In this document: positions 19,436-44,292 of the stretch, one piece after another
How the letters are laid out: every line of letters begins with the position of its first letter
Position numbering within the stretch: the stretch's first letter is position 1
Source: Phoronis australis
Taxonomy: Eukaryota > Animalia > Phoronida
Assembly (NCBI GenBank): GCA_002633005.1
Contig: NMRA01000238.1
Coordinates: forward strand, 186,001 to 250,000
Direction of reading: 5' to 3'
DNA length: 64,000 bases
Notes under the pieces: generated by a model
The model's database searches: none
The model's input: the letters and a program-made list of their open reading frames with translations, nothing else
Told to the model about the DNA's origin: nothing
Made by a program: the position numbers and the translations under genes

Positions 19436-19705
19436 TCAATACGTAACATGTAATAAAATTAACACCAGCACTGTCTTTAAAACCACTCGTTCGGTCACTT
19501 GACAACCCGTATTTTTTCCGTCACTAGATGGCGTCGTCGACAAAGGATTTCCGTCCCCTGTATTACAGAGACTGGACGAACAGCACGTGGTGCACTGGTT
19601 GAATCCTTCGTTAGTCACCAAACATTGTTCTTGACAGTCAGATTTGTAAGCACAGCCACGAAAATAAAATGGCTTGGAGTCTTGTCCGCGCTCTAATTTC
19701 ACAAC
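19436..19705 (-). CDS. ADAM-A terminal exon: second half of LU domain plus GPI-signal-like tail
   Basis: tttag|VVKLERGQDSKPFYFRGCAYKSDCQEQCLVTNEGFNQCTTCCSSSLCN...VLVLILLHVTY*; AATAAA on minus strand near 19232. Confidence 0.88.
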   Translation of the reverse strand, partial: VVKLERGQDSKPFYFRGCAYKSDCQEQCLVTNEGFNQCTTCCSSSLCNTGDGNPLSTTPSSDGKNTGCQVTERVVLKTVLVLILLHVTY

Positions 19706-22700
19706 CTAAAATTAGATTATAAACCATATTGTACATAGTTCAAATCTCGTACGATCAGAGGGCAAATCGAAGGGTGATCCACCGTTTGAAAGTGGCATGC
19801 GAACGCTTATCAGACGGCTGATCTGCCTTCTTACCCGTGTTGATGAACGGCCTTCCAAAAAGACTCTAATGGAGTGCCTTAGAGGAGAAAAATCGACACC
19901 CTCATAGAGAGTGGAATGATCAGATGGAATGTCACAGTTGGTACGGCCCCTATCTATGCTCTATGACATTTTAAGACTCCGAGGAACGCGTGAAATGCTT
20001 CCCCCAGAAAACGTACACTAACAAGGTGGCTATGGTGAAAAAGATATCCTTAATCATTACTCAAAATGACAGAAAAACAGCGAGTCCCAAAGAACGCAAC
20101 GCACATTACAGTAGCCCGGAACAGGAACGCGTTGTTTTGTTCAGCAAGCGTTCCAAAATTTTGGGTCTTTGTCCCCGGACGGTATGAGGTCACGTCAGTG
20201 TCTGCAACACAGTTGTCTGCATCACGGACTAGCAGCTAGTCAAGTCAGTGTCTGCAACATGGGTAGCGGCTACTCGGGTCAGAGTCTGCTATATGGGTAG
20301 TGGCTAGTCAAGCCAGTGTCTGCAGCACGGGTAGGGGCTAGTCAAATCAGTGTCTGCAATATGGGTAGTGGCAACTCAGTCAGTGTCTGCAACATGGGTA
20401 GCGGCTAGTCAAGCCTGTGTCTGCAACATGGGTAGTGGCTAGAAAGGCGTCCAACCGCATGCGCGCACACAGCCTTCAATGCGGGGGGGGCTCGAATTGC
20501 CGACGTCGCGGACCTTTTGGCTAACAAAAGAGTGGGCGGACTAAAAAAAAGGAGCACCACTGTGAATTGCGCGTTTGCGCTATTTAGAGTGGATTTTTGT
20601 CCCATTTTCTCGGACTTTTTTTCTCTCGGGGGCGGACCTTTTTGTCCACTTCGCCCCCCTGGGTGCGCACATGAATCGTACAATGATCTGGATTCGTGAA
20701 GTTAAAAAACGTGCGAAAAGTATGCTATGGACCCCTCTTCTAGAGTTTGTGGTAAAAAAGGCCTTTTGGAAACCTTATAACCGCCGAAATGAATCGTTTG
20801 AAACCAGCTGCATACAGACCAAATTAGACCACGCTTTCCCTATGTCTAAGCTAGTTAGGTCTACAGACCAAATTAGGCCATGCTTTCTCTATGTCTAAGC
20901 TTTCTTGGTCTATGAACCAAATTTGATTAAGCTTTCTCTATGTCTAAGTTTTCTAGGTCTATAGACCAAATTAGACTATGCTGTCTCTATATCTAAGTTT
21001 TCTAGGTCTATAGACCAAACTAGACCACGCTTTCTCTATGTCTAAGGTTTCTAGGACAATAGACCAAATTCGACTATGCTTTCTCTATGTCTAAGTTTTC
21101 TAGGTCTGTAAACCAAATTAGACCATGCTTTCTCTATGTCTAAGGTTTCTAGGTCTATAGACCAAATTAGACCATGTTTTCTGTGTGTCCAGGGTTTCTA
21201 GGTCTGCAGACCAAATTAGAAAATGCTTTCTCTATGTCTAAGGCTTCAAGATATATAGACTAAATTAGACCGTGTTTTCTCTGTGTCTGAGGTTCCTAGG
21301 TCTGTGGTTTCTAGGTCACCAATTTCCGTAACTGCGGGTTCTGGGTCTGTGAGGTCTGAGTTATCTAGCTTTGTGGTTAGAGACACATCTCCAAATTGCA
21401 GAAGGTTTTGAATAGTTGTCATTTCATGTCCAGTGCGTTCAACAACCTGGTGAGGCCTACCCTTTCGACATTAAGGCACTTTACGCGAACAAACAATGCT
21501 TTCTGGAAAGGATATTATACAAAGCAATAGCATGTTACAGGGTCGAGTGACTTGTATGCATAATACTCTGAGCAATCTCGAAAGCGTTAAACTCTAAGAT
21601 GTAGACAAAGGTTTACTTACAGTACAGATCTGGCTGTTGGACTGACATTTTTCTTTATTTGCTGAGGTAGAATTCGGAGTCAGAGCGCATTTGTCGTCAT
21701 CAGAACAGCCATAACAATCGACGAGTTTGGATGCTGAAAAGAAAGGGCGCCATTTTGTTTCCAATACTTTCAAGAGTTTAATGAATTCTAAAACGGATGC
21801 TTGTCATTGGCCCATTGTGACCAGGACCGACCGTGTCTGTGGCTCATAATACCAGATTAATTGATCAAAGAATAAAATTCATCCTTACCTACGTGAACAT
21901 TCGTAAAGCAATCTAGCGCCGGACTTTTGACCTTGTATTCAAACCCACAGTGCTGTGCTTTTCAACAATTATTGCACCTTAGTTTGCCACCCAAAGAGCA
22001 AGTTTTATTTATACGTGAACCCAGCATGGTCGACTTAACAGATTTATGGCCCCCAAGCAAAGCAGTGAACTGGGGTCCATTTTCGACATAAATGCTCAAA
22101 AGAATAAAAAACTGAAACAGCTGATAAACAGTTCGAAGTCCAGTAACGCACACAAGGAAGTTTAGGTGTCTTGTAAACTTATCAAGACATGTTGGACTTG
22201 AGTTTGTTCATAACTTGACACCGACAGAAGTACCTATTCACGAGGATGTTCAGATCTCTTGCGAACGAAGACAAAGTTGTTGTAAGTTTGTTCACATACA
22301 CTTCCAAACCATACTTGGTCGTCGTGACTTAGAAGTGCAAATTGCTTGTGTTTCAAGTGAATATTATGCTACTCGCACACTCTTTTGTTCGTGTCTTCAA
22401 CTAGTCACTTATCTGCTATTCGAAACCATAGAAACAGAGTCCCAGTGCAGGAATCATGAGGGAGGGGAGGTGTGGGGAGGGGAGGCAGTCATATTTTTTC
22501 GGATGGGGATGTAGCTAGGCTTTCAAAATCTGAGGCAATATTTCTACCTGAAGAAATGGAGACACGAGCTGGAACTGATTAAATATTTTTTACTAAAAAG
22601 GCCCATGTTCACACCTCATCTAGAAAAAGTATTCCCAAAGTATACCAAATCCTCTTGTCTCAATAACGCCCAGGGATTTCCACTTGACGCAATTTGAAGC

Positions 22701-25700
22701 ATAGATGTAATCTGTAATTGTGGTCGTCGTCTAGAATCTTCGTAGAAACGAAGGTTGACTTTTGAATTTTAGTCGGGATCACTAGATTTGTCCTCTTTCA
22801 AATCACGTCAGTATTCAGATCGACGTCTGTACCAAGCAAATATGGTGATCTCTCATCCTAGTTTTATAGCTGCTTAATCTTAACTGGCATCGCAAATTTT
22901 TATCAAAATAGTGAAAACTCGACCCAAACTTGCCCATCTCATCGACACCTACCCTTCATGCTATTAGATTTGACTGCAGCCTTCTAGGGTGCGCATAAAA
23001 TACTTACTGTCAATTACAGTTTCGCAGTTGGTGCCTGGATCATAATCTCCCGTGCATGCGCATTTCCCTGAGTTGCCACATGTCTAAAATTTACCAGTGA
23101 AAACACTTTTAACAAGATTTTGATGGACACTTCCTTTCACAAGCCACACAATTTGATATTGGAAGCTTTCAATAGAGTTAAAAATTGCACTAAAAATCTT
23201 TAATTTGAAACGATTGGTTTTTAAAACATTTTGTGTCATTTTCAATATGGATTCTATACCGTCTTTAAACAGCGTAATTAGAAAGATACGTCAACACATA
23301 GACTAATTAAGAATGTTCTTGCAATAATTGCACAAATACTTACTCCGTGACCAGCGCAAACTTTTCCATTGACTGACGTGCATGAGGTAGCTGTGAATGC
23401 CACACACTGCGCGTTCTTGCACCACTTTCCTTCTGCACACTTAGTGCCTTCAGACACCATACCAGACTCTTTGGTGTCTTTTCCAAAATCTGCCGAGCCC
23501 GCTCTAAAAGGGAATATTTATATTTGTGTATAAATTAAAGGAGAATACAACTAAAAACAATGTAACTTGTATCAATTTAGATTGAGAAGTTCCACTCGAT
23601 AACACCAAGTTTAGTTTTTTTACCTGACACAGACGGCAGACGGAGGTGCTGAAGTCAACCAATGACGTCACAAGTTCTAACACAGTCTGCTCAGCAGTTC
23701 ACGAGACGTTTCCTGGTGTCTGCTTATCGCTTAAATTCATCGTTTTACACAAATAAATTGTCAAAATTCGATGTAAAATCCTTACAAATACATTAAGTTT
23801 TTAAATAAATGAGTGGTTTTATTTCGCTGTTACGGAGTTCTATAAATTTTGAAAGTACCGTAGCTTACAAAGTTCTTCGGGGTAGGCCAACTTACCGAGG
23901 TCGGTCGCGGAAGTTTGGAGTCTGTTCGGTGATAAATTAGAATTATTCTTTCGTGAAATACAAACCCTGAGGAGAGCATAGCAGTGTGTTGTAATTTTAG
24001 ACTTGCGAATTTCATCTGTTCTAAACACAAAACGCTCGTTATAACCAAGTGGCTCGGAACACGATCTGACCCGTCGCAGCCGGACTGGAGACATTGCGAA
24101 CATAAACCAGCCGAGCTAGTCGGCTGCCAAACTTGAAAACTAAATTTCAGTCCCAAAAAGACTAGACTAGTGAACCAAAGAAATAATGTGCATGTGAATA
24201 TTTTGATGAATTCGCCGCGAAATTGCAAATCTACTTACTCGTCGGGAGCCCCGAAGCCAAGTTTCCCTTCCACAGAACAGTATGGGAAAATGGTGTACAA
24301 TAACAATGATTTGAATAACGTATATACATACATACAAACATACATACATACATACATATACATATACATAATACACTTACACATATATATATGTATGATT
24401 TATTGAGACATATACACATGGCCAATGGCCATAGGCCCCAAGTATATCATGTAGAAGACAGAACATTGTTAGGTGCCACGTTTCAAACTGGATAATACAT
24501 TATGACGCTTGAGAGCGTGATGGACGAATTTGATAAGTAGGCTATCCGGAGTTCTCATGAGAGAATCAAATTTAGATGTCGTGGGAGAATGACAAAAACG
24601 ATCACTTAAGTACTTAACCCGAAGGTCTTGGTACGCACTACAAACTTAAACAACGTGGTATTCGTCCTCTACAGACCCCGAATTAAATAACTCACACAAC
24701 CTGTTTTCATAGGGAATATTTGTGTGGCGACCTCTTTCCACTAGTAACGAATGATTTGAACATCGCAATCGAGTCAGAGACTGGATAAAAACACGTGGGA
24801 CACCAACCATTTCTAGATAATTCTCAAGATGATACATTGTTTTGTACCTCACATAGTAAGGCAGTTTTGCGTTACATTCGATATCAGCTTGCCAACCTTG
24901 CAAATAACAATCGTTGACACGTTGAGAAAAAACAGTCAAGAAATGCGCTTGATTTTCCACACCCTTATTAATCCACATATCTGAAAAAACCATACACAGA
25001 CAGAAGTTTCCTTACAAAACTTGCCCAATTATAGGAAGATCTTCCGATCAGGTCTGACTGAAAAAGCATATCATATGCAGCTTTTACCCCACGATTATTA
25101 GGCATCTCCAGTATTTTGAACCAGTATTTTATACAAGAAACAAAATATTTAGCTGACAGTGGGAATCGACCACATTCTCCCATAATTGCCGAGTTTGAAC
25201 AACAACTGCCTACTCCTAAAATGCGTTTACAAAACTTGATATGAACATTTTCCAATTGTTCATATTCCTTAAAGCCCCATATCTCAGCGCCGTAACACAG
25301 AGAGGGGTAAACTATTTTATCGAACAAGTGAAAGGCTATTGACGGGGGCAGATCACGACATCTTCGCTTTAATTTACAAATTGCAGAGGCAGCTTTATTC
25401 GCTTGACTAGATAAGGCTTTAATGGCTTTGGTCCACGAAACTTTTGGAGTAATAAGTAGTGCAAGGTAATTGTAATGAGACATTTATATGTATCAAATAA
25501 AGATTCCTCTAACATCTGACCATAGGATATAAAAACGAGTTATAGTTTCACAACAGCATGCGCTCACACGGTGGTCAATTAGTTTTATTGCATATGAAGC
25601 CGGTAACGCAGTATGAGTTATTTACTGTTGATTTCTCAAAATATTTGCACTCATGAACACTTTTAAGGCATTAAAATTGTATCTACTGAGACAGACTTTG

Positions 25701-28700
25701 ACACTTTGTTTCAGTTTTATATAAACATTGATTAGGTTGAAAATAATTCATTTTGAAACAGAACCGCTTTGCCGGCCACAGACACGGAGATATTTCATGG
25801 CCTAATACTTGATATTAAGGCATGCTTTTCCTTCTTTAGTATCGGGAACCACTTCCTAAGTATTTCGGGTTCTCGAGGATATCGAAAAAACGATATACCC
25901 GCTTTCCTCGTAAGACGATAACAAAAAGCAATTGAATCGGATGGCATTCTCCTTTGAAACTTTTCTACAGGCAGTATACGAGGAAGATGCGAACTGAATA
26001 AGTGACGTCACTTAGCTCAATTGTTTTTTTACCCAGAACGTTTCCTGCATGCACTTTAACGTTCAGTTACCGGTGTTTAGAGTTACCTGGACCTTGTTCT
26101 AAGGACCCAAGACACTTGCGGGAACAGGAGTGTGATTGATCACGTGTTTTGCTTGTAACGCTTGTTATCTTAAGATAATCCCTCCATGAGAATTACTTGT
26201 TAACCATGATGTGTTTCTTGACAATTGACTTAAAACTAAGACAGAACTTGGGTCTTGCGCTCACACGTCATAATTGTTGAATTGTGGTTTAGCCAAGAAA
26301 GTATAAGCGCATCACAGTCTAGAGATAAATTACAGAAATTATCTCGGTAACTAGCAAATGTGTTGATAGTCTTTGAAGCACTTTTTTCAAGTGAGATTTG
26401 ATTATTTTTCAGAAATAGTTGTGTGAAAGGTAAGAGCAAATTTCTGATTCAAGTGACTTTTCTTGAACCAAACCTCAAAAGCGTCAACGTTAGGCGATTT
26501 AGGCATTAAATGACCTACTTGCAATTGTATACTGTCGATACACCATTGATGGTTCTAGTGATCTTGTACATAGTTCCCGTCCGCGAAGTGCCTATTATGG
26601 GTAAAACCACTCCCGAGTCAGGATGACCACACTGTAGCTTGCCACACATGATATCTCTGAAATAGTTTTGACTTGATGTTACACACCAACAATGAAAATG
26701 TGTCATACTGCTTCGTAGAACCTGAAACTGGATCAGTCAACACTCACGTTTCACTCAACAAATCCTGAATAGATGTCAACATTCTTTAGGGGCGTAACTC
26801 CCACTTCGTGGTGGAAGGCTGCTAAAATTAAATGCCTTCATATTCGCAATCCCACCGACCGTTATCACTAACAGCCTCTCGGTCATGATAATCGAGACGG
26901 CAGATCCAAAAAAATAAAGTTGTATTCCAATTCATTACTTTAAAAGTTCAAGATGAAGTAATCTTCTGGCTTTATTTCAGTGTTTAGAACATAATCACTT
27001 TCACAAATTTTGGAACAAATAACTAGAAGGACAAAACAAGAAAACGACATACTTGCGACACACTGCTAAAAAAGAACACGGCAGGTCATGCAAGAATAGA
27101 GGAAGTTCTAATAAATTAGAACACCGTTATTTTTAAAGAGCTAACCGCTGTATCTTTTTGGAGAGAATCAAGAATCAAACATAGGAAACTATGTGTCCAC
27201 TCCTCAATAAGTCTGATAAGCTACATTAATTATTAAAGCTGGTGTCTTGTAACAAGTACAAAGCTATAGACTTTATTCACGCACTCGCCATGTCAGTAGT
27301 GAGCCTCTTTTTAGGTTTAAGACAGGAATGTAACGAGGCACGCAAAAAAATCGCGCTTTGCGTTGCATTTAAGCGCAAAATGTATTGTTTTTAAAACCTA
27401 AAAAGAGGCTCACTTTTAAAATGGCAAGTGCGTGAACACGGTGTATACTCACGTGGTCGTGCATGCCGTGTATGACCCGTCCGCCTTCTGCCCACAATGT
27501 CCAAACTGATTACCTTTCTTGTTGACGTAGTCGTAACAAAAGGGGTCACCAACTGTAGCATCTAACATTGCACGGAAGAAAAGAACTTGAGTTATCGATA
27601 ATTACCAACGATGTGAAGTCGTGCTGAAAATCCCGCCAAAAAGGAAGCCATGTCCGATATGACGAGATGTTTTATCAGAGACAACAATTTTTCTAAAATA
27701 TAGCGACATGTTTCGGCGGTGCATTTTAAAGAAATCGTTGTCTTTATTCAAATTCTACTTATATTCGTCAATGCGAAATCTTTCAATAGAATTGTGAAGA
27801 GAAGTGTGTTCAATGTACGTAAATGCAAAGTACTTATATCTGAAAATTGTTGATGATAAGGCCATTATTGTGTTCCACAGTCAAACGAATTGTTTGAAGT
27901 CAAAGTAACTGAAATATCACAGCTCCATAAAGCCATAGAATAAAAACGATTTCACGTCAGAAGAATATAGTTTTTGAACAATGTTTTACAGAAAAAAATG
28001 ATACTCTTATCAAGTTCACTCTTTAATTGATATTATGTGGAGACGTTACACTCAAAGCACATGGTTATGTAACAGTCAGATAATTTGAGCGGTCTAATGG
28101 TTTTTACTTAAGAAATGCGCATTGTTAGAAACTGACTACGTTGATTTAGGGCGTTGGTTATTCTAACACCATGACAGATCTATGCTATGCTTTTATAACA
28201 CCATAATGACAGATCTGTTATCACATTCAGTGGCTTATTTTATTAAAACCATAGTTTGATGTATGAATGGTTACATATCAAAATAATTCTGAACAATGTA
28301 ACAAGCTACTCGAATGTGAATGTCCTAGTGAAGAATGTTAACATAAAAGTAATGTGAAAAATAAACAACTGTGTTAGATAATTTGGAAATGGGCGTTAAC
28401 ATTCATGTGGATCAATGGATGCGAACAGAGGAGAATATTTGACAGTGGTTTTGTATGATTATGGTTACCCGATTACAGAGCCTTAAGCCCTCGGCCTTGC
28501 GACTATCGTAGGGAGCACAGAACATTTTCCACCAATGTTGCTGCCCCGTATCTGTTAAAATATCTCCCCCCGGATCTACGCAGAATTTATAATGCGAAGG
28601 ATATTAGAATAGCGCACACGCCTGTATGAACGCTCAGGAAGAGATTAGTGAACCCCTCAGCGTGGTGATGTCATTGGAGTGATGTATCACATTTTCAGTG

Positions 28701-31700
28701 ATTCTGACTTGTACATTGGTGAGACTGAACGACCGCAACGAAAGCGCACGGGTCAGAATCGCATGGTTGATGCCAGCAGTTTAAACTCCGCGGCGTTTGA
28801 TCACTTTTGGTGCGGGACACTCGTTTGAGACAGCGGGCGTGATATGAGAAACTTTTTGGTTTGAGCGAGGTGTCAGAGAGGCTTTATGGGTTAAAGCCAA
28901 GAACACTTCTTTGAATAGACACGGATGGATCAGATATAAGTTGTCTGACTCCTGGTCTAGGGCGTTGCCGTTGTTGTCTATGAACAGAGAGCCAAAAAAT
29001 TTTCACGGGAGCCAGTCAGTAACCAATCCCCAGGAGAATGAGCCAGGTAGCTGAGGAAAGTCGGGAAAATTAGTTTACCGGATGTTCCAGAAGTTGTGTC
29101 TTTCCGACCTTTTCCGGGAACTATTTATTAACTCGTGTTCGTAGAAGCATTTCCCTTTTCAGATCATAATAACAATCAACGTAATTAATTTCCGTCAAGT
29201 TGTCGTCTTGCTCAAGGTACTCACTTTCGCCAAACATGTACTTGCATTGCGCGTCCTTGTGTCTGCATGTCCCCGTGAGACAATACGCCTACAACGAAAA
29301 CAAGGAGATAGTTTTAATTTTTTGTCTAATTTAGTCATTGTTAATATCCGTCACTTTCTGCATTTTCATCACACTCACCGCCATGTTGCAGCATATATTG
29401 CCGCACTCGACAAATACTTTCTACGAATCCTCCTTTACAAGAGACTCACTCGGTAGTTGACGTAGACTCGATAGGGAAGGGGTCGAATATGCGGCTTTGA
29501 ATTTTGAGTGGGGTGCGATCGAAAGACCCCTGATTGCAAAGCCAACGTTCCCACAAACTAGGCCGGCACCAGGTGTGGTTATCATCATCACTAACTTCCA
29601 GATGTTTGCACTGTTCTATTTGCAATAGTGATACTTTGGCCACTTTACAATTTGCCTGGCCTCCCTCTCACTTTGGGTTCGCGCATTTGCCAAAGTTCTA
29701 ATAAATATAATAAGACAATTGGGGGGTAAAATGTGCCAAGTTTTGAGGCTCACATTATCCACCAGTGGGCGACAATATCTGCCGGTGACCTCTACTCATA
29801 TTGTCGGACTAGTATCTTCCACTGCGACAATATGTATAGATGTGACGTCACATATTATGGCACACAACACATATGTGTCGAGTGCTACACTTACGACCAC
29901 TGCAGTGACGACGACAACGACGACGACGACCACCACCACCACCACTACCACCGCAGCTATTAGAATCACAACCACAACGACCACCAAAATGAACACCTAC
30001 ACCACACGAACACCTCCAAAACCACCATCTCTACGCCATTAATCACCACCACAAGCAACACCATCACCACCACCATCACCATCACTGCCAATCACCAGCT
30101 CCACCACCACCATCACCACCATCACTACCAATCACCAGCGCCACCACCATCACCACCACGATCATTAGTAGTACCACAAGTTCTTGCAGCATCCATACCA
30201 TCTAACGTTTTCTCCGATATCAAGTAGTGACTGTAATCGTCGTCATCTTCGACATCCTTTGCATAACCATACACATACTTTCTTCACCGTTGTCATATTA
30301 CCGCCTTTTCGCCGGTTAATTAGAATATTTGAAACTAGCTAACAAAAAATCTTACATCGTTATTCTTGCATGGGGTGCCATCCGCCTTGTACTTATCTTC
30401 TGGGCACTGAAAAAGGATAATTGGAAAAGTTTTACAAAGGTGTGAGATATTGTTCATACAGTACCCTCAAATGATAAAGATGACTTTTGATTGGCAAAAA
30501 CACAAGACTTTAACATCCGTTATGACATGGCTCTGGTTCAGTCATGCTGCCTAGACAAAAGATGTATCCGTGACATATCTATCAAATAATGTAGAAACCA
30601 TAAATCCCAGACAGTGTAAAGAGAGTGCGCACACTATTAAAATATGGGAATCTAATTAGATTCGAAGAAATCAGAGGGAAGGAGTACAGTTGGCCGTATA
30701 ATATAGGAATATGAACCGATGCCGGACAGCGGGGCCCTCCCTATTAATATAGTTGGCCCTGCCGGAAGACTGCCGGAATTGTGACGGTGTTTTATAAGTA
30801 TAAATATAATCTTATTCAATAGTCAAGGCTCATGTGAGTGTTGAAATTTCATGTCTCGGCCTGATTTCTCTGTTGAGAAAAAACAAAAAATTAGGAAAAC
30901 AGTTCTCTGCGTACTGACAGCGAGAAAATTTTACAGTTCAAACGCGAAATCACCCACAATTTAGGTTTAGTTCAAACCAAAAATGGCAATTTTCGTAAAA
31001 AAGGTGGTCATGTAATGTTCAACAATTGCACAACCTTTCAAAGTATGACTTATTGCGTATTTCGAAAATCTATTCTTTTAGGGGTTCAGTTTGTTTTATG
31101 AAACGTGAAACGACGGATGAGAATTACTTTAATTAGTAATGCGTCTGTCACACGAAAATCAATAGGGTTCTGCGAGGTATCCAAAACTCTGGTCGGAATT
31201 CGTAACTTATTATCAAAGTTTGATCTTAAAACTTGATTGGTCAAAAATATAATCAAATTTTTGGTGAAAACAAGAGCGGCGGACCATGGAGGACGGCCGA
31301 TTGTCTGAATAAATATTGACTACGTAATTAGTACAGATATTTCCATTTATGTTATCTAAAATTTTGCATATGTAGTTACAAAACCATGGGGTCAAACTTG
31401 TTTACATGTATTTTGAGGTCATTATCTATTTTTAGATGATATTTACCACTTTGGTTTTGGGGCCAATGTACTCTAAAGATTCTAGAAATTTCTGAAAACA
31501 AATCATAACAGTCAATGATATGAATAGATAAGATCATGTGGTTTTTATTAGCCAATCATTAAGTAAGTACATCATTATAACTTGGTCAGAAGTCTTGAAA
31601 ATACTCAGATGGGATTAAGTAGTTGAAGCTAGAAGACTTGCTACAGTGTGCAGAAGAAGTTGTACAACAAAGCCATCCCGTGGAAGATTCTAAAGAGGAA

Positions 31701-34700: not shown

Positions 34701-37700
34701 TTATATTTTTGAAAGTTCTCCAGCGTCTTGGACTCGTCTGTCAAGACCGTGATCTTATCTTCTTTCGACCAATTTTCCACACCAGTCAGAACGACGCGCA
34801 TGTTCAAACTCTTGTAAAACTGTAAACAAAATAAAATTGAACAGCTTTCTGGAAGTAATGGTGACCTTGGTGCTTTGACCAAAGAGTGTTCCTTGCTTTG
34901 ACATACAACGCAAATCTTCTCTTTTTCATCTAATTCCCTAACGAACGTATGAGTTTTGTTTCTTTGGTAATCAAGTTCTTACCTCGTCCATCGTGTTAGC
35001 CACTTGAATTGTTCTTTCGCGCATTTTCTGTAGAGTTGGATTCGCTTGCCACTGAAACAAAAGAAAAGTGGCTCAGTGCTTCTTGATGTATGACATTCTT
35101 TTCGGCCCATGGTGTATATTAGTTGCTTCAAATAACCAAGGTCGTATTGAAAGACATCGGGCAGCGACATACACTAAGTTTGTGACTGTCAGACATTCGC
35201 CCTATGCTGTAATGCACCTTACCACCATGCAGTCTTGTGATCCGCAATGGTCAAAAGGTATTGCACATTCTTAGACAACTCAAAATTTTGACGTTTCAAA
35301 GCTCAATTTTTATTTCTTTTCAATTTTATAAAGGCTATTTTTCGAATGATTTTGACTCCGCAAGACCAACATCAACACCCAATTGCAGCACTTCAGAGGG
35401 TAACGCAGGCCGGTTGAAATCTTCTTGTGTCGGGTGCAAGTCGAAAACTAGACAAGATGTGCGTGCTAAAAGATCTTCATTTTCTGCAGGTCAACATCTC
35501 GACTATTAACGCTAATAAGTAAAAGGGCCTGTATGACAGAGTCGAAGTAACCAATCACTTACAATAAAACGCGTTACGACTAAGACACAACAGGAAACAT
35601 GAAAATCCTCGAACAAAGCAGTAATTCCAGGGAACATTGACAGCTGTTAGGTGTTGGTCATTTCCTCTCATTTAATGATTACAAATTTATAGATTTCAAA
35701 GCAATGCGCATTTGCTTACCAAGATTTTAGAAAATTATGTGTAACAAATTTTCAATGATGAATCCTTGGATACACACTTGCCATTACAATAGGACCGTCC
35801 CGGATTACACAGCGACACTCGAATCTCGTTGCATTCACCCACAATTGGCAATGCCGCACATTTGCTGCCTCGTTTTCGTTCCACTGGAGTTTCACATGTT
35901 ATTTTGTTGTTGTCTGATTCTCTACAAGATTTTTTGGTTGCATTACTCTACTGCTCCATCCAACGCCAACCAAGTGTTACTGACGTGCTGTGGGCTGCAA
36001 CGTGAGAAAGTTTGGTAAACTGGACAAATACCAGTGTATCAAGTTCTTCGCCTTCCCGACATCAATGAGACACAAAAATGTTCCTGATTCCAAACCGAGG
36101 TCACGCGCTTTTTCATCTCCCAGCCAAAGGAGAGTTCTATCGCCGAGTAATCCGAGACGGCCGTATTGCGCGAGAAGCACTTACCGTTCTGTAGTCGTTG
36201 ACAATGTAAACCTCGACGTATCTAGTCGCGACATCCTGGTTAAACTGGGATACGCTGCTTCGGATCTGAAAGAAAACACAAATGTTTCATCAGTTTATTC
36301 AGTGTTCACTGTATATTTAAAGAATGCGAAAGTTGTTTAANNNNNNNNNNNNNNNNNNNNNNNNNNNNNNNNNNNNNNNNNNNNNNNNNNNNNNNNNNNN
36401 NNNNNNNNNNNNNNNNNNNNNNNNNNNNNNNNNNNNNNNNNNNNNNNNNNNNNNNNNNNNNNNNNNNNNNNNNNNNNNNNNNNNNNNNNNNNNNNNNNNN
36501 NNNNNNNNNNNNNNNNNNNNNNNNNNNNNNNNNNNNNNNNNNNNNNNNNNNNNNNNNNNNNNNNNNNNNNNNNNNNNNNNNNNNNNNNNNNNNNNNNNNN
36601 NNNNNNNNNNNNNNNNNNNNNNNNNNNNNNNNNNNNNNNNNNNNNNNNNNNNNNNNNNNNNNNNNNNNNNNNNNNNNNNNNNNNNNNNNNNNNNNNNNNN
36701 NNNNNNNNNNNNNNNNNNNNNNNNNNNNNNNNNNNNNNNNNNNNNNNNNNNNNNNNNNNNNNNNNNNNNNNNNNNNNNNNNNNNNNNNNNNNNNNNNNNN
36801 NNNNNNNNNNNNNNNNNNNNNNNNNNNNNNNNNNNNNNNNNNNNNNNNNNNNNNNNNNNNNNNNNNNNNNNNNNNNNNNNNNNNNNNNNNNNNNNNNNNN
36901 NNNNNNNNNNNNNNNNNNNNNNNNNNNNNNNNNNNNNNNNNNNNNNNNNNNNNNNNNNNNNNNNNNNNNNNNNNNNNNNNNNNNNNNNNNNNNNNNNNNN
37001 NNNNNNNNNNNNNNNNNNNNNNNNNNNNNNNNNNNNNNNNNNNNNNNNNNNNNNNNNNNNNNNNNNNNNNNNNNNNNNNNNNNNNNNNNNNNNNNNNNNN
37101 NNNNNNNNNNNNNNNNNNNNNNNNNNNNNNNNNNNNNNNNNNNNNNNNNNNNNNNNNNNNNNNNNNNNNNNNNNNNNNNNNNNNNNNNNNNNNNNNNNNN
37201 NNNNNNNNNNNNNNNNNNNNNNNNNNNNNNNNNNNNNNNNNNNNNNNNNNNNNNNNNNNNNNNNNNNNNNNNNNNNNNNNNNNNNNNNNNNNNNNNNNNN
37301 NNNNNNNNNNNNNNNNNNNNNNNTTTTTCCTGTTTGACACGTTCTTCGTGTTTTGTTTTTTTTTTTTTCCTTTTTTCTTGGATAATACTTCAGGAATCAA
37401 GGAAAATGCTTGATTTTTAGAGGTAAAAACAGAAAAATTTCCTGAGCGGGAGGGGGGCAAACCCCCCTCCCGACCTCCCCCCATACGGTGCTATGCTTAT
37501 CAACAATCTTGGTTCAGTTTGCGCAAATGCTTACAGCCGGACAAAATGTTGGGCCCCCCTTGTGATATCCTAGATCCGCCACTGTTATGACCCACGCTTA
37601 CAGAGTGGACTAGGGAAAAGGAACCCATTGGTAAACGGATTTCATTAAAAACACCCTGTCGTAGGATTTTGTTCCAGAACACCACCTTTTTGTAGAGGTT

Positions 37701-39356
37701 AATTTCGAAAATATAATTTCTTTGGTAGGGATCACTAGGGGATGTTGTAAAACGAAAAACAATCTTCGTAAAAATTGTTCGCCGATAAAAATTAAAGGTA
37801 CGACGTGACTTTCCAACAATCAAACCGGTATAACAAATTTTATATGAGGAATCATTGAACACTTGGTAAACCAATACGTACCACACATCTGCACCGTTCG
37901 GTTTCCTACGTCACTCTCTTTATAAACGACGTGCAGATGGCGCTCCTGCCCATCGGCGTCTGTCATCTCTTTATGAGGCGTAATGTGGAAAGTTTCGTTC
38001 CCAGAGCTGAACATGCCACTGCAAGAAAAAACGAAGTGACTACTGTTAACGGATTGTAGTACAATGGGTATCAAGGTTCACTTCGAAGTTACACTCCCAT
38101 TTTCTGATATACAGAATTGGGGTTCGTCTGAAGAAAACAACCTAAACCAAAGACAAATTGTGCAGTTTTTGCTTTAAAAATTAAATTTAAGGTAAAACTT
38201 AAAATGATGTCAAGACTTTGTTCCAAGAACGAGGTCTTCAACCGTGTCTATTTAAATTTGTAGTAAGCACCACCTACTGACTTCCTGGAGTATTGTGTGT
38301 ACCAGTAAATTCACGACAAACAATTTGTTAGTAAATTGCGGTTTTAAAGAAAGCACTACAACTGATACACTTAAAAAGTGTGAGCATATAAAAACCATAG
38401 TAATTCAAAATATTACGCAATCGTTATTTGATAGTGAAATAAACAAATAATAAAAACTTTGCCTTGTTTCATTAGGGTAACAATGAAATATTACCATACT
38501 CATTTGCATAAAAATAGTCTGGCAAGACAAGACTTTCGCGAGATTGCAATGATAACTGGTTCTCGGATGGTTTTCGGCACACTGGAGGATCAGAGGTTGT
38601 TTGTAAATTAGTATTTCATATGAATATTCACAATTTAATGAGACTATGCATCTTTAAGTTTCTCGTAAGTTTCCGACCCAAGTATGTCTTGGCGGAGTTT
38701 TCTTCAGACAAGTCAGACAATATACAAATAAATACCACAATACACCCAGAGTTAAAATTGTGTATGGTGGAATTATTTAGTTTCCATAAAATACTATTCA
38801 CGAACACCGATTTTGGAGATGTATTGAATTTTATAAATTGAAAATATGATATCTAGCAAAAATGGATGTCCTATTTTCGTTTTAGAAATTAGAGACATGA
38901 CACCAGATTTTCAATTTTCGATTTGTATTAACGGAAGCTCAGACTTCATTGTGGTCCGAGACGGAATGCGGCGTGACTCTAAGTATTCTTTCAAGACTAA
39001 CCACATCTCTGTCAATCTGGACCTAGGTAGGCTTATGGCAATGGTATGCACTTTTTTGTAACTCTTCTTCATCGTGATTCGCAAATTGATGTTTCCCTGT
39101 ACTCACCTGATGATGGCTTTTAGTTAATAAACTGAAACGTCGTGACTATGGTTATTTTATTATTTTTGAGATGATGGAATGTAGAATATTACTTGATTTA
39201 GGTATGCATTATTCAAATCAGATCCAACTCCGAATAACTCTGATAACTTTTGATCAAATAATTGAGTGGATTCATTAGACAAGACAAACATTACGCATAT
39301 CAATCAATCAATCAATCAATCAATCACTCAATTAACCAACCAACCAATCAATCAAT

Positions 39357-39406
<50 letters not shown>

Positions 39407-41641
39407 TCATTTATTTTAGTGACCTGTAGCAATCGCTACCCAGCCACAACTTGAGTTTATAAGTCACCATTTCCAAAGAGAACGTACAAAGTATAGACAA
39501 GGCATACATGTACACAATGACAAAAAGAAAATCAGACCAACCTTCTCAATCATTATTAATTAACTAGTAAATAACAGCTTTTTTCGCCTGAGAAATGCAT
39601 TATGAATAAAGGTGATAACTAATTTACTCACAATGGTGTCAGTCATCAAGAAAATTTAATGACAATAAAATGAACAATCATGTTAAAAAATAAAATATAA
39701 ATGATAGTATCAGGGAGTGAAAGACTTGTCCACGTGACCCATTAAAAACAATATAATGAATAAAGAAACGTGAGAACGCTCAAAACATACACATTACTGA
39801 TATTAAAAGTAAAAAATATGCGCAGACTTTAACAGAAACATTACTAAGGAGACAGGATAAAATGAATATATAAATAAGTAAATATATCAAACCACATCAA
39901 TAACAAAAAATAAATACATAAAATCATCAATGAAAATAGCAAGGACCAAAAGTACTTAGAGAAGCAAATGCATGATCATTTAATTCATGGAATGACGTCA
40001 GTAAAGAACTAACGCTGAATTTGACTAAACAAATGCCATTTGTCTAGTAATTTTTGAATTACAAGGCAACGGCATTTCTTAAAAAACATTTCCCGATAAT
40101 ATTCAGTGTTTCTTGGAACGGATCCCAGTAGCCGGTTGCATGAAACAGTCCCAAATAAGGACTCAACTAAGATCCCTTTTTGTGTATTTGTGTCTTTAAG
40201 GACAAGAAGATGCCATATTTTTCTATCATTTCATCTTTATTGTGAGCTCCTCTTTTATTAATGACATTTTCTAATAATATAACTCAAAACTGAGCCCAAA
40301 GTTCATTGAAAATATATAGGGACTCAGTCCTTAAATTGGGGGTGTTGCATGAAAAGATCCCTAATTACTTTCGAAAATATTGACAATTCAACGTAGAGAT
40401 CACTCTCTATTTGCATCCAAATCAAAAGATGACTTAGTAATGAAACTAAAACAATACAAGAAAGGGCAATCGATGCTTTCACAAGTCCAAAAATACGCAG
40501 TAGATTTAGGAGACTTAGTTGACTCCCTATTTGGGAGTGTTTCATACAACCGGGCACAGGCTTCCATTCATGACCTACACGTTGCAGTTAAGCAATGCTC
40601 GTTGTCTAGTCACACGTGTCCATAATTGATTTTATTGCTGGTAAATAACATTAACAGGTATTTTACTCTTATGTAATGTTTTGTACATCATCAATACCTG
40701 TAGAACAATACGCTGGGACAAACACTGGAGCAATTATTGGTGATTTTGTAATAATCTTTGAATAATTTATGTAACATTTAAGACTACCAAAATAGTACAA
40801 CATTGCTGACTATTCTTGAAACATGCCAAGACGTGACAATCGGATTACCTCAAGATCTAACTGCTGCCTGGTGGTTTGTTAATTGGACCAATCATGTTGT
40901 ACACCCAGCAGAAGTAATGTGGAACATATTATTGGAACACTGAAAACGTTTTTAAACGTTTTCAGTGTTCTTAAAAGAGATAAAAGTCACATTTCTTGTT
41001 AAATTTTCAAAATCCAAAAACCTAATCACGTGTGCTTTTCACAAACTATTCAAATATGCTATTTACAAACTTTCAAAACGAAAATTCAAAAATACTATTG
41101 TCGTCCCTAATGTGTTTAGAGAACCATAACATCACCAGACTGATGCGATTTAATTAACTACAACAGCACGGTGTCTTTGATCTGAACCGGCAGATTCTGT
41201 GTTGCGCAAACAAGTCGAGTGCCTATAGCCCCAACTGGCTAAGGTGTCAACGTAGGTTACTGTTCTTGTATGATATTGTAATATCCCCTCCTGGTCACTG
41301 TTATTACTAGTAGGCATTGACATACGTGACGTCAGTCTTAACATGACGACAGATAAGAGATGACTTACCTAAGTCCCTTGCATGTACTCAAAACAACGCT
41401 TGACACATCATGACCACGAACTTTTCCGTGATAGTAACAATGTTCTGGCTTAACCTGAAACACGCATTGTCATTGATGGCGGTTAGATAAGAGACTATTC
41501 ATGGTTGGTAGCAGTAAGAAAAAATGTTAAAATAGTATCAAGTCTTGTGGACAGCACCAGTAATTACTTTGATTAATTACCACGTCTTTGTACGCGTCGT
41601 GTCTCTTCACTACTTATGCATTTGTCGATGAGAGTGTTGTC

Positions 41642-41683
<42 letters not shown>

Positions 41684-44292
41684 GACAACACTCTCATATA
41701 TATATATATATAAATAAATAAATAAATATATATATATATATATATTTATTTATTTATCTCACATATCACTAATTACTCATTATGTGTCACGGCGATGTCT
41801 TGTGATCACGTGCTTTAGTTTGTTGTTACATGACGTCATAATTATATTTACATTAAGCGTACCTGCGCCGGTCAAGCGACAACATTTTTCTAGACAAAAT
41901 CCTCAATATCACCGTCATTTAAAGCAAAGCCATATCTGTTTTGTTTTCGTTTGATTTGAAAATATAGATTTTGACAGGATCATGATTTTGTTGGGGAAGT
42001 TATCGATGTGATTAACCTGTTTCTAATGACCCTGGATTAAAGATAACGGTCTCATCACAATGCATCGGAATTTTCATCGGTAAATGTTGGTTATTAGATC
42101 ATGATCGTTTTAGGGAGTAAAATTGTTTTTAGGACCGAAGTCATGTACGAAAGATTTGGTAGTCCTGGTGAACAATTTGCTACCGTACACGGGAATTTAT
42201 TCCACCAGGTAAACAAACCGTGAAAAAAACGAGTCCACGACTTCGTCCACTGTCTTGAATATTTTTTTGTAATTTGGTAGAGCAAACGAACCGATTCACG
42301 TGCGTTTCCGTGTAAGTGGACGGGAGAGTGAGAACAGTTTAAGGTTGCCGACTAGACTGTTAAAAGGTTGTTATTATGCCGCATCCGAAATATTCAACAT
42401 TATGACAAGCTCCCTTTTTTGAGAACCACGTGTGCTTGAATTAGGAGCGCATTTAAAAACGCCGATGATTTCAGTACTAATTCCGTAATTTGCAAGACCA
42501 GACATGCTTTCACAGTACACTCCAAAGGCCAATAGTCATGCTGTTAATTAGCCGACAATACAAAGAAAAAGTCTTTAAATTACTGTAATTAAACTCTTAC
42601 TTCCATTACAATTGCAAGCTGTCACGAGCGCCGATTTCTACGGTACCGGCTGACCAGCGAAGCCGTGATCCGGAGGACAAAATTAGCTTAATGACAAACG
42701 AATGATAATACCCTAGGGATCAGATGGGTGCAGATGCAATGCATGTGTTTGTATATTGTGTTGCTTTGTAGAATGAATAAATGCACTAATTCTTGTACTG
42801 AATTAAAACGAAAGAAAAAGAACAGAATGAATGAAGTTAAACTGAAATGAACAAAGAACGACAACGTTGAACCTTTGGTATTATGAGAGGCGATATAATG
42901 TACCTGCTTTCGAACAGTGTTTCCGTTTTCGTCGTCAAAAATTTCCATGAACTTCTGTCCAATTAAGTTTCTGAAAGAAGAATGGGACATTCTTTATGAA
43001 GGAATCACGGATATCAAATTTCCTATGGAATGGGGCTTGAATAGCGCTTGGTATCCGGGAACTGTAGGACTCGCCTTAGGTAGAAAAATGCAAAATTAGT
43101 GAAACCCAATTCTTCAGCCCACTAAAACCTCAGCAAGATTTGTTGTGACGTATATTGTCACACTCGACAAAAACTGTCGTACAGGGGACATCTACCTTAT
43201 TGGTTACGGGCGTTTAGAAGAAAAGCATTATAATAATGTGCTTGCAGAAAACTAGGCCACCAACTTGACCAATATTACTATTTTTCATAAGCGCGCGAGC
43301 CACTCACTCGCTTTTTGTTGTTGACAAAGTGCGAAAAAACGGGTGTCGCTAGTGAATTTTTTTTATTAGAAGCTCGTTTTGCTGGTTACTGGATACTAAA
43401 GAAACACTCCAATGTGAAACCAGTTTGTATAATTTGTTGTGCACTTACGAAATCTTATGAAAAGAGAGTATTTTGTTGAAAAAATATGCAACAGGTAGCG
43501 CTCTATTTCTTAGGTGGCCCATACATCTACAATCGACCCGTTAATTGGCTGCAGAATGATGGAATAATGGCATTGTAACCAAAAGGCTTTGTCTACATAG
43601 GCAATCGCAGATACCTTGGTTATCAGTTGAGATTTCAGATTTATAAAGAATTACCATAAAACAGAGTGTTGAAAATATTGAAACTCACTTGTTAAGTTGT
43701 AAGTCAATAATAAACTCTTGATGGAATACCGGGATAACAAAGCTAACGCCTTCTGCGTGGTTGTATTCGGTTTCTTTGGTTGACAAGTCGCGGCGCCGCC
43801 TGTTGCCAACTAATCTGTTTGGCACCACAATATCATGAGCAAAGTCGTAATCGGAAGATTCTGCAAAATCAGATGTAGAACATATTTAGTTACGTACTAG
43901 TGCGGAAAAAACGAAATTATTCCCGATGTTTTTATCTTTATTCAGCGTAATAGACTATGTCAACTGATTATGCTCTGTTTGACTAAGGAAAATATACTAC
44001 AGTTTTAAGTGAACAGAACGTATTAAATTTTTGGTCGTCAAGAGTTGTGGCCTGGCTCGATGGCTTAGTCTTCTTGTATTTTGTCATTGTGACAAGCAGG
44101 GGTAACTTTGCTTTCGCGAGCACGCGCACATAAAGATAAAACCACTCACCAATTACAAGTACATACAATGGAGTTTAATTCAAATTTCTGTACAACGTAG
44201 CTACCTTCGGACAGAACGACTATTTCTTCTCCTGTAGCAGCCTCGAGTAGCCCCAGAAAGAATACTACGGTCATACAACATCGGCAGAACAT
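19436..44292 (-). CDS. ADAM-A: ADAM metalloprotease (signal-pro-M12B-disintegrin-Cys-rich-EGF) with C-terminal Ly6/uPAR domain and predicted GPI signal; multi-exon, ~800+ aa
   Basis: 20 GT-AG exons, phase-consistent except across the N gap: 44205-44292, 43689-43860, 42904-42970, 41369-41454, 37882-38018, [missing exon, likely in gap], 36185-36265, 34983-35051, 34647-34819, 33859-33940, 33565-33698, 32657-32816, 32259-32435, 30356-30406, 29225-29288, 27453-27561, 26519-26656, 23344-23503, 23008-23083, 21621-21733, 19436-19705; zinc motif HEMGHNLGMQHD and CIM Met-turn. Confidence 0.9.
20195..20441. repeat. ~35-bp minisatellite (gtcagtgtctgcaacatgggtagcggctagtcaa), ~7 units
   Basis: Visible degenerate tandem units. 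Confidence 0.85.
20458..20673. mobile_element. MITE, CATGCGCGCAC-TIR family (TSD aaccg/aatcg)
   Basis: catgcgcgcac...gtgcgcacatg; 5-bp flanks with one mismatch. Confidence 0.75.
20816..21310. repeat. ~49-bp minisatellite (agaccaaattagaccatgctttctctatgtctaagttttctaggtctat), ~10 units
   Basis: Visible tandem units in the intron between the two LU exons. Confidence 0.9.
21621..21733 (-). CDS. ADAM-A exon: first half of LU domain
   Basis: ttttcag|(T)SKLVDCYGCSDDDKCALTPNSTSANKEKCQSNSQICT|gtaagt; phase 1 in, phase 0 out. Confidence 0.88.
23008..23083 (-). CDS. ADAM-A exon: end of EGF-like domain
   Basis: TCGNSGKCACTGDYDPGTNCETVID; ends phase 1, gtaagt donor. Confidence 0.88.
23344..23503 (-). 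CDS. ADAM-A exon: end of Cys-rich domain/start of EGF
   Basis: AGSADFGKDTKESGMVSEGTKCAEGKWCKNAQC...VCAGHG. Confidence 0.9.
23539..25953. mobile_element. Kolobok-like non-autonomous DNA transposon (degenerate copy) with nested LINE
   Basis: ttaa|aggagaatac...atggcattctcct|ttga ends; body homologous to 46641-48197. Confidence 0.75.
24326..25485 (-). mobile_element. 5'-truncated non-LTR retrotransposon (RTE-X-like ORF2 C-terminus) with a (TATG)n tail
   Basis: ORFs 24968-25483 and 24646-24993: LCYGAEIWG, HIKFCKRILG, GECGRFPL, LRCSNHSLLVERGR, EDEYHV; absent from the sister element near 47385. Confidence 0.85.
26519..26656 (-). CDS. ADAM-A exon: Cys-rich domain
   Basis: DIMCGKLQCGHPDSGVVLPIIG...YNC. 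Confidence 0.9.
27276..27437. mobile_element. Fold-back MITE with ~50-bp imperfect TIRs
   Basis: ttcacgcactcgccat..gtgagcctctttttaggttt ... aaacctaaaaagaggctcac..atggcaagtgcgtgaa. Confidence 0.65.
27453..27561 (-). CDS. ADAM-A exon: Cys-rich domain
   Basis: ATVGDPFCYDYVNKKGNQFGHCGQKADGSYTACT. Confidence 0.9.
28670..29130 (+). mobile_element. Penelope-like element remnant (GIY-YIG endonuclease end plus decayed 3' repeat)
   Basis: GVMYHI...LYIGETERP...SAAFDH...WFERGVREALWVKAKNTSLNR, frameshifted. Confidence 0.7.
29225..29288 (-). CDS. ADAM-A exon: Cys-rich domain
   Basis: AYCLTGTCRHKDAQCKYMFGE. Confidence 0.9.
29908..30160. repeat. (CAC/GAC/CAT)n trinucleotide low-complexity tract
   Basis: Directly visible; explains the poly-T/V/H ORFs. 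Confidence 0.9.
30356..30406 (-). CDS. ADAM-A exon: disintegrin end/Cys-rich start
   Basis: CPEDKYKADGTPCKNND. Confidence 0.9.
32259..32435 (-). CDS. ADAM-A exon: disintegrin domain
   Basis: ECPTVDPCCEVKGCKLK...GECCSGCKLKPRGTVCRNATSDCDIEDVCTG. Confidence 0.93.
32657..32816 (-). CDS. ADAM-A exon: catalytic domain end/disintegrin start
   Basis: SFTQCS...CLNDKP...PVCGNQIKETGEECDCG. Confidence 0.93.
33565..33698 (-). CDS. ADAM-A exon: zinc-binding active site
   Basis: VMAHEMGHNLGMQHDDGRTC...GGCIMSA (HExxHxxGxxHD plus Met-turn); absent from the ORF track because it is short. Confidence 0.95.
33859..33940 (-). CDS. ADAM-A exon: catalytic domain
   Basis: GIDLTGGVAGLGYVGTMCGPLSCAINE. Confidence 0.92.
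34647..34819 (-). CDS. ADAM-A exon: catalytic domain
   Basis: FYKSLNMRVVLTGVENWSKEDKI...DYDVAQLV. Confidence 0.92.
34983..35051 (-). CDS. ADAM-A exon: catalytic domain
   Basis: WQANPTLQKMRERTIQVANTMDE, phase 0/0. Confidence 0.82.
35791..36164. mobile_element. MITE with AGG.CCGTC.CGGATTAC TIRs
   Basis: aggaccgtcccggattac...gtaatccgagacggccgt; sister copy 55793-56131. Confidence 0.7.
36185..36265 (-). CDS. ADAM-A exon: start of catalytic domain
   Basis: IRSSVSQFNQDVATRYVEVYIVNDYRT (reprolysin RYVE..IV.D). Confidence 0.9.
36341..37323. other. Assembly gap (983 N), probably hiding one ADAM-A exon
   Basis: Upstream exon ends phase 1, downstream exon begins phase 0. Confidence 0.95.
37882..38018 (-). 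CDS. ADAM-A exon: prodomain with candidate cysteine switch
   Basis: GMFSSGNETFHITP...HLHVVYKESD...QMC(G). Confidence 0.88.
39300..39403. repeat. (TCAA)n microsatellite, possibly the tail of an adjacent LINE
   Basis: Directly visible. Confidence 0.9.
39404..40900 (-). mobile_element. Highly decayed L1/Tx1-like 3' fragment
   Basis: Minus-strand AATAAA followed by (TTGA)n tail; LIWDC remnant resembling the HLFWDC zinc knuckle near 40150; boundaries approximate. Confidence 0.3.
41369..41454 (-). CDS. ADAM-A exon: prodomain
   Basis: VKPEHCYYHGKVRGHDVSSVVLSTCKGL (classic ADAM propeptide motif). Confidence 0.93.
41628..41745. repeat. (TA)n microsatellite inside a near-perfect palindrome
   Basis: atgagagtgttgtcgtgtgt-(TA)n-acacacgacaacactctcat, followed by more TA/TAAA. 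Confidence 0.85.
42904..42970 (-). CDS. ADAM-A exon: prodomain
   Basis: NLIGQKFMEIFDDENGNTVRKQ; phase 2 in, 0 out. Confidence 0.85.
43689..43860 (-). CDS. ADAM-A exon: prodomain N-terminus
   Basis: HDIVVPNRLVGNRRRRDLST...FVIPVFHQEFIIDLQLN. Confidence 0.88.
44205..44292 (-). CDS. ADAM-A first coding exon: signal peptide
   Basis: MFCRCCMTVVFFLGLLEAATG-EEIVVLSE; acceptor directly before ATG; phase-1 donor matches the next exon. Confidence 0.75.

Follow-up and report, generated by a model that had tools for sequence, protein, structure and literature searches.

The stretch of DNA analysed here, referred to as the window, comprises 64,000 nucleotides of a contig of the phoronid Phoronis australis; it is animal-type DNA with a GC content of about 40%. 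On its minus strand lies an intron-exon gene for an ADAM metalloprotease, here called gene B. A second gene on the same strand, paralog A, ends about 5.9 kb upstream of the start codon of gene B. The exon ends of gene B were set from the sequence and then translated, and the splice sites are canonical throughout, with AG at every acceptor and GT at every donor. Fifteen exons, from 36265 down to 19436, give 618 residues without a stop, and five exons at the 5′ end (44292-37882) give 183 residues made up of a hydrophobic N-terminus and a propeptide. Beyond the last exon AATAAA is found at 19265 and 19237. The coordinates are collected in the table.

Features of the window, with positions counted from its first nucleotide. 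LU, Ly6/uPAR-type domain; Cys-rich, cysteine-rich domain.
Feature	Position	Strand	Basis
Gene B exon 1: start codon and probable signal peptide (hydrophobic N-terminus)	44205-44292	-	by eye
Gene B exon 2: reprolysin propeptide	43689-43860	-	Pfam Pep_M12B_propep E 8.3e-5, 23.6 bits; 49% identity to Lingula P0012
Gene B exons 3-5: remaining propeptide	42970-42904, 41454-41369, 38018-37882	-	in frame, AG/GT ends
Assembly gap, 983 N	36341-37323	.	phases of flanking exons, relatives
Gene B catalytic domain	36265-36185, 35051-34983, 34819-34647, 33940-33859, 33698-33565, 32816-32657	-	Pfam Reprolysin, motifs
Gene B disintegrin	32435-32259, 30406-30356	-	Pfam Disintegrin 54.1 bits (cut-off 35.1)
Gene B Cys-rich and start of EGF	29288-29225, 27561-27453, 26656-26519, 23503-23344	-	Pfam, ADAM9 alignment
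Gene B EGF exon, ending in phase 1	23008-23083	-	aligned to fish ADAM9 EGF
Gene B LU exon 1: first five Cys, phase 1 to 0	21621-21733	-	acceptor score, RNA depth in X1 and X2
Gene B LU exon 2: last seven Cys with CCxxxxCN, spacer of Ser/Thr/Gly, predicted GPI signal and stop	19436-19705	-	
Paralog A, late catalytic to Cys-rich	63233-63074, 61822-61646, 59678-59628, 57838-57775, 55410-55302, 53701-53564, 53069-52910	-	
Paralog A EGF exon	52354-52279	-	
Paralog A LU exon 1	52154-52042	-	
Paralog A LU exon 2 and predicted GPI signal	50514-50239	-	
Rhodopsin-family GPCR, intronless, 385 residues	16843-18000	+	Pfam 7tm_1 E 6e-41
Repeat element, two partial copies	23535-25897, 46637-48025		74-83% alike
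Minisatellites in the intron splitting the gene B LU domain	20214-20442 (34 bases x 6.7), 20816-21303 (49 bases x 10)		
tRNA-like element, two nearby copies, in an intron of paralog A	about 54790-55230	-	by eye

The original prediction treated 44292-19436 as one gene. The exons do lie in order, but the frame is broken as assembled: exon 5 ends in phase 1, exon 6 begins in phase 0, and the gap of Ns lies between them. At the corresponding position the relatives described below have about 25-55 residues that include a furin-type RKKR site, and none of five candidate exons outside the gap resembles the relatives. Because the 5′ and 3′ parts are out of phase, with the gap between them and an RKKR segment in the relatives, one propeptide exon of gene B (phase 1 to 0, with the processing site) is probably missing from the assembly and lies inside the gap.

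Other features accompany the two genes. Tail to tail with gene B is an intronless GPCR gene, whose nearest solved relatives are the tachykinin, NPFF and orexin receptors and which may resemble GPR19. The two partial copies of the repeat element carry heavy, repeat-derived RNA cover. Two frames in the repeat (25483-24971 and 25011-24649) have no Pfam match and are presumably the end of a decayed non-LTR retrotransposon protein. ARAGORN called no tRNAs in the window.

The ectodomain of gene B has the intact catalytic motifs that had been predicted for it. The zinc motif HEMGHNLGMQHD is found at 33659-33624 and the Met-turn CIM at 33584-33576, both on the minus strand and within a single exon. 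The same HExxHxxGxxHD motif and Met-turn are present in two relatives outside the window, a Lingula protein and P0015; that of paralog A falls beyond the window. Pfam was run on 12 single exons. Two of them match Reprolysin (E 2.5e-14 and 3.2e-10), and in the Cys-rich region a 35-residue exon matches ADAM_CR (E 5.2e-6) and another match is to ADAMTS_CR_2 (E 3.4e-5). The propeptide match falls just short on its single exon, given a cut-off of 23.7 bits, and reaches 48.7 bits in P0012, the 805-residue form of the Lingula protein. Exons 3-5 finish at the likely cysteine-switch cysteine, and the 5′ part as a whole is 42% identical to P0012. There was no match for the 25-residue EGF exon, which is assigned by the ADAM9 alignment, for one Cys-rich exon or for either LU exon 2. 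The RKKR site is present in both P0012 and P0015, and the exon matching it in gene B is probably the one missing at the gap.

The EGF exon ends in phase 1 and LU exon 1 begins in phase 1, giving an in-frame join to two exons that together encode 12 cysteines, as the original prediction had it. The ADAM ectodomain, the LU-type domain and the terminal hydrophobic signal thus share one reading frame. The acceptor of LU exon 1 scores within the top 1% of 3,395 AG sites. A scan for a phase-1 exon resembling a transmembrane segment found none at 104 acceptors downstream of the EGF exon of gene B, nor at 36 between the EGF exon of paralog A and the start of gene B, and no separate signal exon was found in the EGF-LU intron of either gene. 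By its predicted ectodomain the gene B product is an ADAM, but it is not a canonical type-I membrane ADAM.

RNA was taken from three raw runs (X1, X2 and X3) and one contig set with the same species label. About 18-19% of each raw run was examined, a joint was reported only at three or more reads, and depth was computed over gene B from exon 6 onwards. In X2 the depth amounts to 150 bases over the EGF exon, 317 over LU exon 1 and 131 over LU exon 2, which corresponds to some four reads (145-151 bases each); of 214 reads, 4 were placed whole. X1 gives 83 bases in LU exon 1 and 219 in LU exon 2, equivalent to two reads, and X3 also has depth over LU exon 2. X1 and X2 each have 26 bases in the bin that holds the last 11 bases of LU exon 1, which fits two reads crossing the donor, since both sides begin with GT. 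The flanking intron bins and the upstream exon have zero depth, barring a repeat (20318-20755) and, near 19800, three X3 reads with mismatches. For all reads of this region the first mate lies on the plus strand, as expected of minus-strand RNA if the library is stranded. Overall the depth over gene B is at trace level and most placed reads are repeat-derived. Of the two predicted junctions, 23008 to 21733 and 21621 to 19705, it can be said that the depth sums fit splicing of EGF to LU exon 1 to LU exon 2, at one or two molecules per run, but in the fraction of the runs examined no joint over the exons tested reached three reads.

Paralog A repeats the arrangement. Its ten 3′ exons have the phases of those of gene B, nine of the ten agree in length, and the aligned proteins are identical at 302 of 432 residues. 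Its EGF and LU exons lie 124 bases apart. Between the two genes the Cys-rich exons are 46-75% identical and the whole LU domain 82%; of the ten exons, LU exon 2 has the highest identity, 86% over the 50 codons of its domain part. Differences between the two genes are mostly at third codon positions; in LU exon 2 there are 4, 5 and 19 at the first, second and third positions. The acceptor of LU exon 1 in paralog A is weak (score 2.5, under all 25 training sites), and two in-frame acceptors, 12 bases apart at 52166 and 52154, precede this exon. Together with an 11-residue difference at the start of the Lingula LU domain, these two acceptors suggest that the EGF-LU junction may be alternatively spliced. 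The 5′ half of paralog A lies beyond the window and the array of ADAM-LU genes may be longer than two.

With LU exon 2 as query, phmmer gave five matches at E up to 0.001 among 1.84 billion representatives. One of these, P0006, is Lingula anatina XP_013399533.1 (named ‘ADAM12-like’), a single model with a zinc motif, disintegrin, Cys-rich and EGF regions, a 12-cysteine LU domain and a GPI-type tail. Its cluster also holds an N-terminal fragment, XP_013399538.1, and P0012, which lacks 11 residues at the LU start, including LU cysteines 1 and 2. Two further matches (P0003 and P0004) are multi-LU proteins without a protease, and P0003 passes three LU-clan cut-offs. The remaining two, P0005 and P0007, are Ig-repeat proteins and were dropped as chance. 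When residues 560-805 of P0012 were used for searching, 2 of 1,571 candidates matched, P0006 and P0015. The latter is a 909-residue open reading frame on a 3,886-base Logan contig that encodes an ADAM, an EGF region, two LU domains joined by a Gly/Asn-rich linker and a GPI-type tail. Since a frame of this length on so short a contig spans at least 10 intron positions of the window, the contig is most simply read as a spliced transcript. A word-based homologue search with LU exon 2 matched none of 14 candidates; with the disintegrin exon 2 of 4 matched, both fish ADAM9. A tree of six proteins was too small to place the subfamily, had an implausible zero branch and was set aside.

Gene B is 51-54% identical to the Lingula protein and P0015 (54% to XP_013399533.1) and 41-42% identical to two fish ADAM9 over about 445 residues. 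Its LU domain is 52% identical to that of Lingula, against 54% for the whole protein, and such agreement is expected for joint inheritance. In all, four proteins from three sources (gene B, paralog A, Lingula anatina and P0015) have the ADAM-LU-GPI-type layout, which supports the architecture first predicted from gene B alone. The recurrence in Lingula and P0015 indicates an old conserved subfamily, not an artefact of the gene model; as far as sequence can tell, the fusion is old and kept by selection.

These relatives also bear on whether the window holds two neighbouring genes, an ADAM whose 3′ end lies elsewhere and an independent Ly6 gene, or a modelling artefact. The RNA result at the three-read threshold and the confinement of the exon scan to the 64-kb window leave some room for this. 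Against it, the in-frame junction is identical in both paralogs, where in paralog A it bridges only those 124 bases, the join is repeated in Lingula and in the one continuous frame of P0015, and no transmembrane or signal exon was found. We regard two genes or an artefact as very improbable, and gene B almost certainly encodes one fused ADAM-LU protein.

The identity of the added domain was investigated by comparing five LU domains, those of gene B, paralog A and Lingula and the two of P0015. Each has 80-87 residues and 12 cysteines at nearly fixed spacing (2,5,13,6,18,5,3,9,2,0,4 in gene B). The LU motif begins LxCxxC and ends CCxxxxCN (PMC4839075). All five domains have this ending. An LxCYxC start had been predicted for gene B, and CYxC is indeed present, but gene B has valine at the leucine position (VDCYGC, compared with LDCYSC in paralog A) and is the exception among the five. 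Ten of the cysteines map to the CD59 pattern (PMC4839075) and the extra pair is located in the third finger. According to the same source, a typical Ly6 gene has three exons, with the LU domain over the last two and the GPI signal in the final one. Gene B follows this layout, with its LU domain split across two exons and the GPI-type signal in the last.

When tested alone, the second LU domain of P0015 matches Pfam QVR at 29.5 bits, above the cut-off of 27.3, with weaker matches to Toxin_TOLIP, UPAR_LY6 and Activin_recp. The Lingula domain alone reaches 22.1 bits and the halves from gene B and paralog A E 0.0064-0.13, all under the cut-off; the extremes are one LU exon 1 run as a single exon (E 0.13) and the frame with LU exon 1 of paralog A (E 0.0064). 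A profile built from the five domains gives all 13 LU repeats in P0003 and P0004 scores of 12.1-24.9 bits, with 260 shuffled sequences at no more than 3.5, and hhalign of the LU alignment against P0003 gives a probability of 59.7 (E 8.9e-5). Sequence matches in the PDB at E up to 10 were of three-finger type in 10 of 10 cases, at E 0.27-2.9 and none significant. Nine of these ten are BMP type I receptor ectodomains, and an origin of the domain from BMP/activin receptors was considered and rejected, as Pfam favours QVR (E 1.6e-6 to 3e-4) over Activin_recp (E 0.15-2.2). Structure models from single sequences, made without alignments, have a mean pLDDT of 49.8 and 38.4, which is too low to judge the fold, and Foldseek with the latter found only ADAM22 at E<0.01. 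In the ESM Atlas the neighbours of LU exon 2 are LU-family clusters at 0.85-0.89, which we treat as a lead only. Taken together, the profile, the cysteine pattern and the exon layout support the assignment of the predicted domain to the LU family, as a quiver-like member, and it is likely to be three-fingered. Profile searches miss the 12-cysteine LU type, so further fusions are probably hidden in lophotrochozoan gene sets. P0003 is an uncharacterised crinoid protein (Anneissia japonica XP_033115318.1) with nine tandem 12-cysteine LU repeats, which share the extra cysteine pair with the ADAM-LU domains.

After the LU domain of gene B there are 41 residues, and the best hydrophobic 11-mer (Kyte-Doolittle, KD, 2.9) ends five residues before the stop, so that the modelled product has the hydrophobic C-terminus without a cytosolic tail that was originally proposed. 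The two fish ADAM9 used as controls have 107-121 residues after the transmembrane helix. By a hand heuristic, all four ADAM-LU tails have 0-5 residues beyond the hydrophobic core, and in each of them small residues 20-33 positions before the C-terminus are omega candidates. The omega rule alone is also positive in both ADAM9 controls, where the terminal hydrophobic core is absent. Gene B has the least typical of the four tails, with an extra cysteine and charged residues ahead of the core. The tail might instead be a short C-terminal membrane anchor, or the protein might be secreted like soluble ADAM isoforms. P0015, whose best 19-mer has a KD of 2.37, comes near to a membrane span, but in the other three proteins the value is 1.35-1.66 (1.66 in gene B), compared with 2.86-2.94 in ADAM9, where 107-113 residues follow the 19-mer; this, the omega-like residues and core-terminal ending in all four, and the fact that such an ending is usual for Ly6 proteins (PMC4839075), make either outcome quite improbable. 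The gene B product is very probably GPI-anchored, judging from these features of its tail.

We consider it most likely, at a probability of about 58%, that gene B encodes a lipid-tethered surface ADAM protease whose LU domain would bind a partner or substrate beside the membrane. The protein would be secreted and transferred to GPI in the ER, and its propeptide would be removed at a furin-type site such as the RKKR of the relatives. It would then sit in the outer leaflet and lack the inside-out control exerted on ordinary ADAMs through the cytosolic tail, and the surface enzyme could be released by GPI phospholipases. The LU fingers would form an added exosite, docking the enzyme on a membrane protein or ligand that the catalytic domain would then cut. 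There is a precedent for an exosite appended to the same scaffold in the lectin domains of RVV-X (PMC4885070).

Alternatively, the Ly6 exons may have been captured for their GPI signal, with the LU domain serving as a folded stalk that holds the enzyme at a given height above the membrane and has no specific binding partner. The signal does share an exon with the second half of the domain, and LU copy number varies, P0015 having two with their Gly/Asn linker. A stalk of this kind is less easily squared with LU exon 2 being the best kept of the ten exons between the paralogs, including non-cysteine positions of the second finger, or with the LU domain being conserved like the rest of the protein against Lingula, in contrast to the spacer and tail. 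In a disulfide-rich domain the demands of folding can by themselves account for conservation. We only lean towards the LU domain being a putative partner-binding module rather than a mere stalk, and think it unlikely that it was captured for the anchor.

Gene fusions often unite interacting proteins, which counts in favour of another possibility, that the LU domain folds back on the ADAM domains as a built-in chaperone or regulator of maturation, stability or activity, in the manner of TEX101/LY6K and ADAM3 in mouse sperm. ADAM3, which is mammalian and catalytically inactive, is far from the clade of gene B, and the EGF-LU spacing of only about five residues limits fold-back. The GPI protein TEX101, a member of the LU family, is presumed to act as a chaperone of ADAM3, and mice null for Tex101, Ly6k or Adam3 have a common phenotype (PMC7555588), but the same authors advise caution over the TEX101-ADAM3 link at the protein level (PMC7555588; PMC4804279). 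Such a built-in chaperone seems improbable, rather more so than the stalk.

With respect to origin, Ly6 signal exons typically end in phase 1. An ADAM ectodomain may have taken the position of the signal-peptide exon in a Ly6 gene of three exons, so that domain and anchor would have been gained in one step, and the fusion would predate the split of the gene B lineage from Lingula. This is the simplest route, given that the LU exons of gene B correspond to exons two and three of a typical Ly6 gene (PMC4839075).

Returning to the surface protease with a docking LU domain, a more specific proposal, which we put forward tentatively and as somewhat less probable than its negation, is that the ADAM-LU proteins are ancient, undescribed ‘guided’ GPI-anchored ADAMs. 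By analogy with Lynx, quiver and BMP-receptor ectodomains, the enzyme's own three-finger module would dock a receptor, channel or growth factor and deliver it to the catalytic site. If true, it would give the first case of an LU protein being an extracellular protease in its own right, and would unite in one chain the mammalian LU-ADAM and uPAR-uPA partnerships. In the textbook view, ADAMs are type-I membrane proteins regulated by way of their tails. How they choose their substrates is an open question (PMC4885070). An ADAM with intact motifs, in which span and tail are swapped for an LU domain and a predicted lipid anchor, offers a natural test of what a module and raft-type anchoring do to shedding, and it extends the small set of known LU domain partners to a protease.

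The architecture had been thought novel, and a full-text literature search, which covered mostly journals other than subscription ones, found no published description of an ADAM-LU protein. The sequence is already present in RefSeq for Lingula, but it is unrecognised. LU architectures were surveyed in 2026 across 387 invertebrate genomes, Lingula included; the survey lists kinase, 7TM, Kunitz, C1q, fibrinogen, Ig, MAM, thioredoxin and permease partners, and its main text names no protease (PMC13719153). The Lingula protein could be in the supplement, or could have been dropped for want of a second brachiopod, the threshold being loose. In term searches, ‘disintegrin’, ‘Ly6’ and ‘uPAR’ were absent from the text and one supplement of the Lingula genome paper (PMC4595640), and ‘Ly6’ and ‘uPAR’ from PMC13425148 and PMC9848320. 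The ADAM-LU architecture is apparently undescribed, conserved and a new variant within the ADAM family. This novelty is tempered, in that LU domains are known to shuffle onto many invertebrate proteins and that fold, anchor and function are here predicted.

Among known systems, the canonical MDC-EGF ADAMs (ADAM9/12/19/33 type) have the same order of propeptide, metalloprotease, disintegrin, Cys-rich and EGF regions as gene B, and the nearest solved ectodomain is that of ADAM22, which the Lingula relative matches at E 2e-79. ADAMs in general end in a transmembrane segment and cytoplasmic tail, and ‘GPI’ does not occur in the review that describes this (PMC4885070); the ADAM-LU proteins end instead in one or two LU domains and a GPI-type signal. 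The Lingula entries (XP_013399533.1 and XP_013399538.1, ‘ADAM12-like’ and ‘ADAM23-like’, and UPI00078A2669) have the architecture of gene B, its 12-cysteine spacing and 52-54% identity, but were deposited in RefSeq under pipeline names and split into two fragments, and Pfam run on the whole protein misses the LU domain.

CD59, Lynx1 and quiver/sleepless resemble the LU part of gene B in their ten CD59-spaced cysteines, the CCxxxxCN ending, two coding exons and a GPI signal in the last, and QVR is the best Pfam family of the ADAM-LU domains. Gene B differs from these single-domain GPI-anchored Ly6/uPAR proteins in the extra cysteine pair of the third finger and in having a protease in place of the signal exon. 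Pericellular proteolysis from a lipid anchor, as proposed here, is known from the GPI-anchored MMPs, which belong to another protease family; MMP17 (MT4) is one such enzyme. MMP-25 (MT6) is described as ‘potentially GPI-anchored’ (PMC5187769). In uPAR, which binds uPA (PMC4215179), an LU protein likewise localises a protease, but the two are separate chains whereas gene B is one, and the protease families differ.

The original prediction also drew a parallel with snake venoms. The scaffolds do match, the P-III metalloproteinases sharing theirs with the Lingula relative (E 1e-54 to 1e-82) and one three-finger venom protein matching the LU domain in the PDB sequence comparison at E 0.9, but the parallel tells nothing of function and is an analogy only. 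The anchor signal and trace expression of gene B do not suggest a use in venom. P-III enzymes and three-finger toxins are separate, secreted proteins without EGF or anchor, whereas gene B has both an EGF region and an anchor signal in the chain that carries protease and LU domain.
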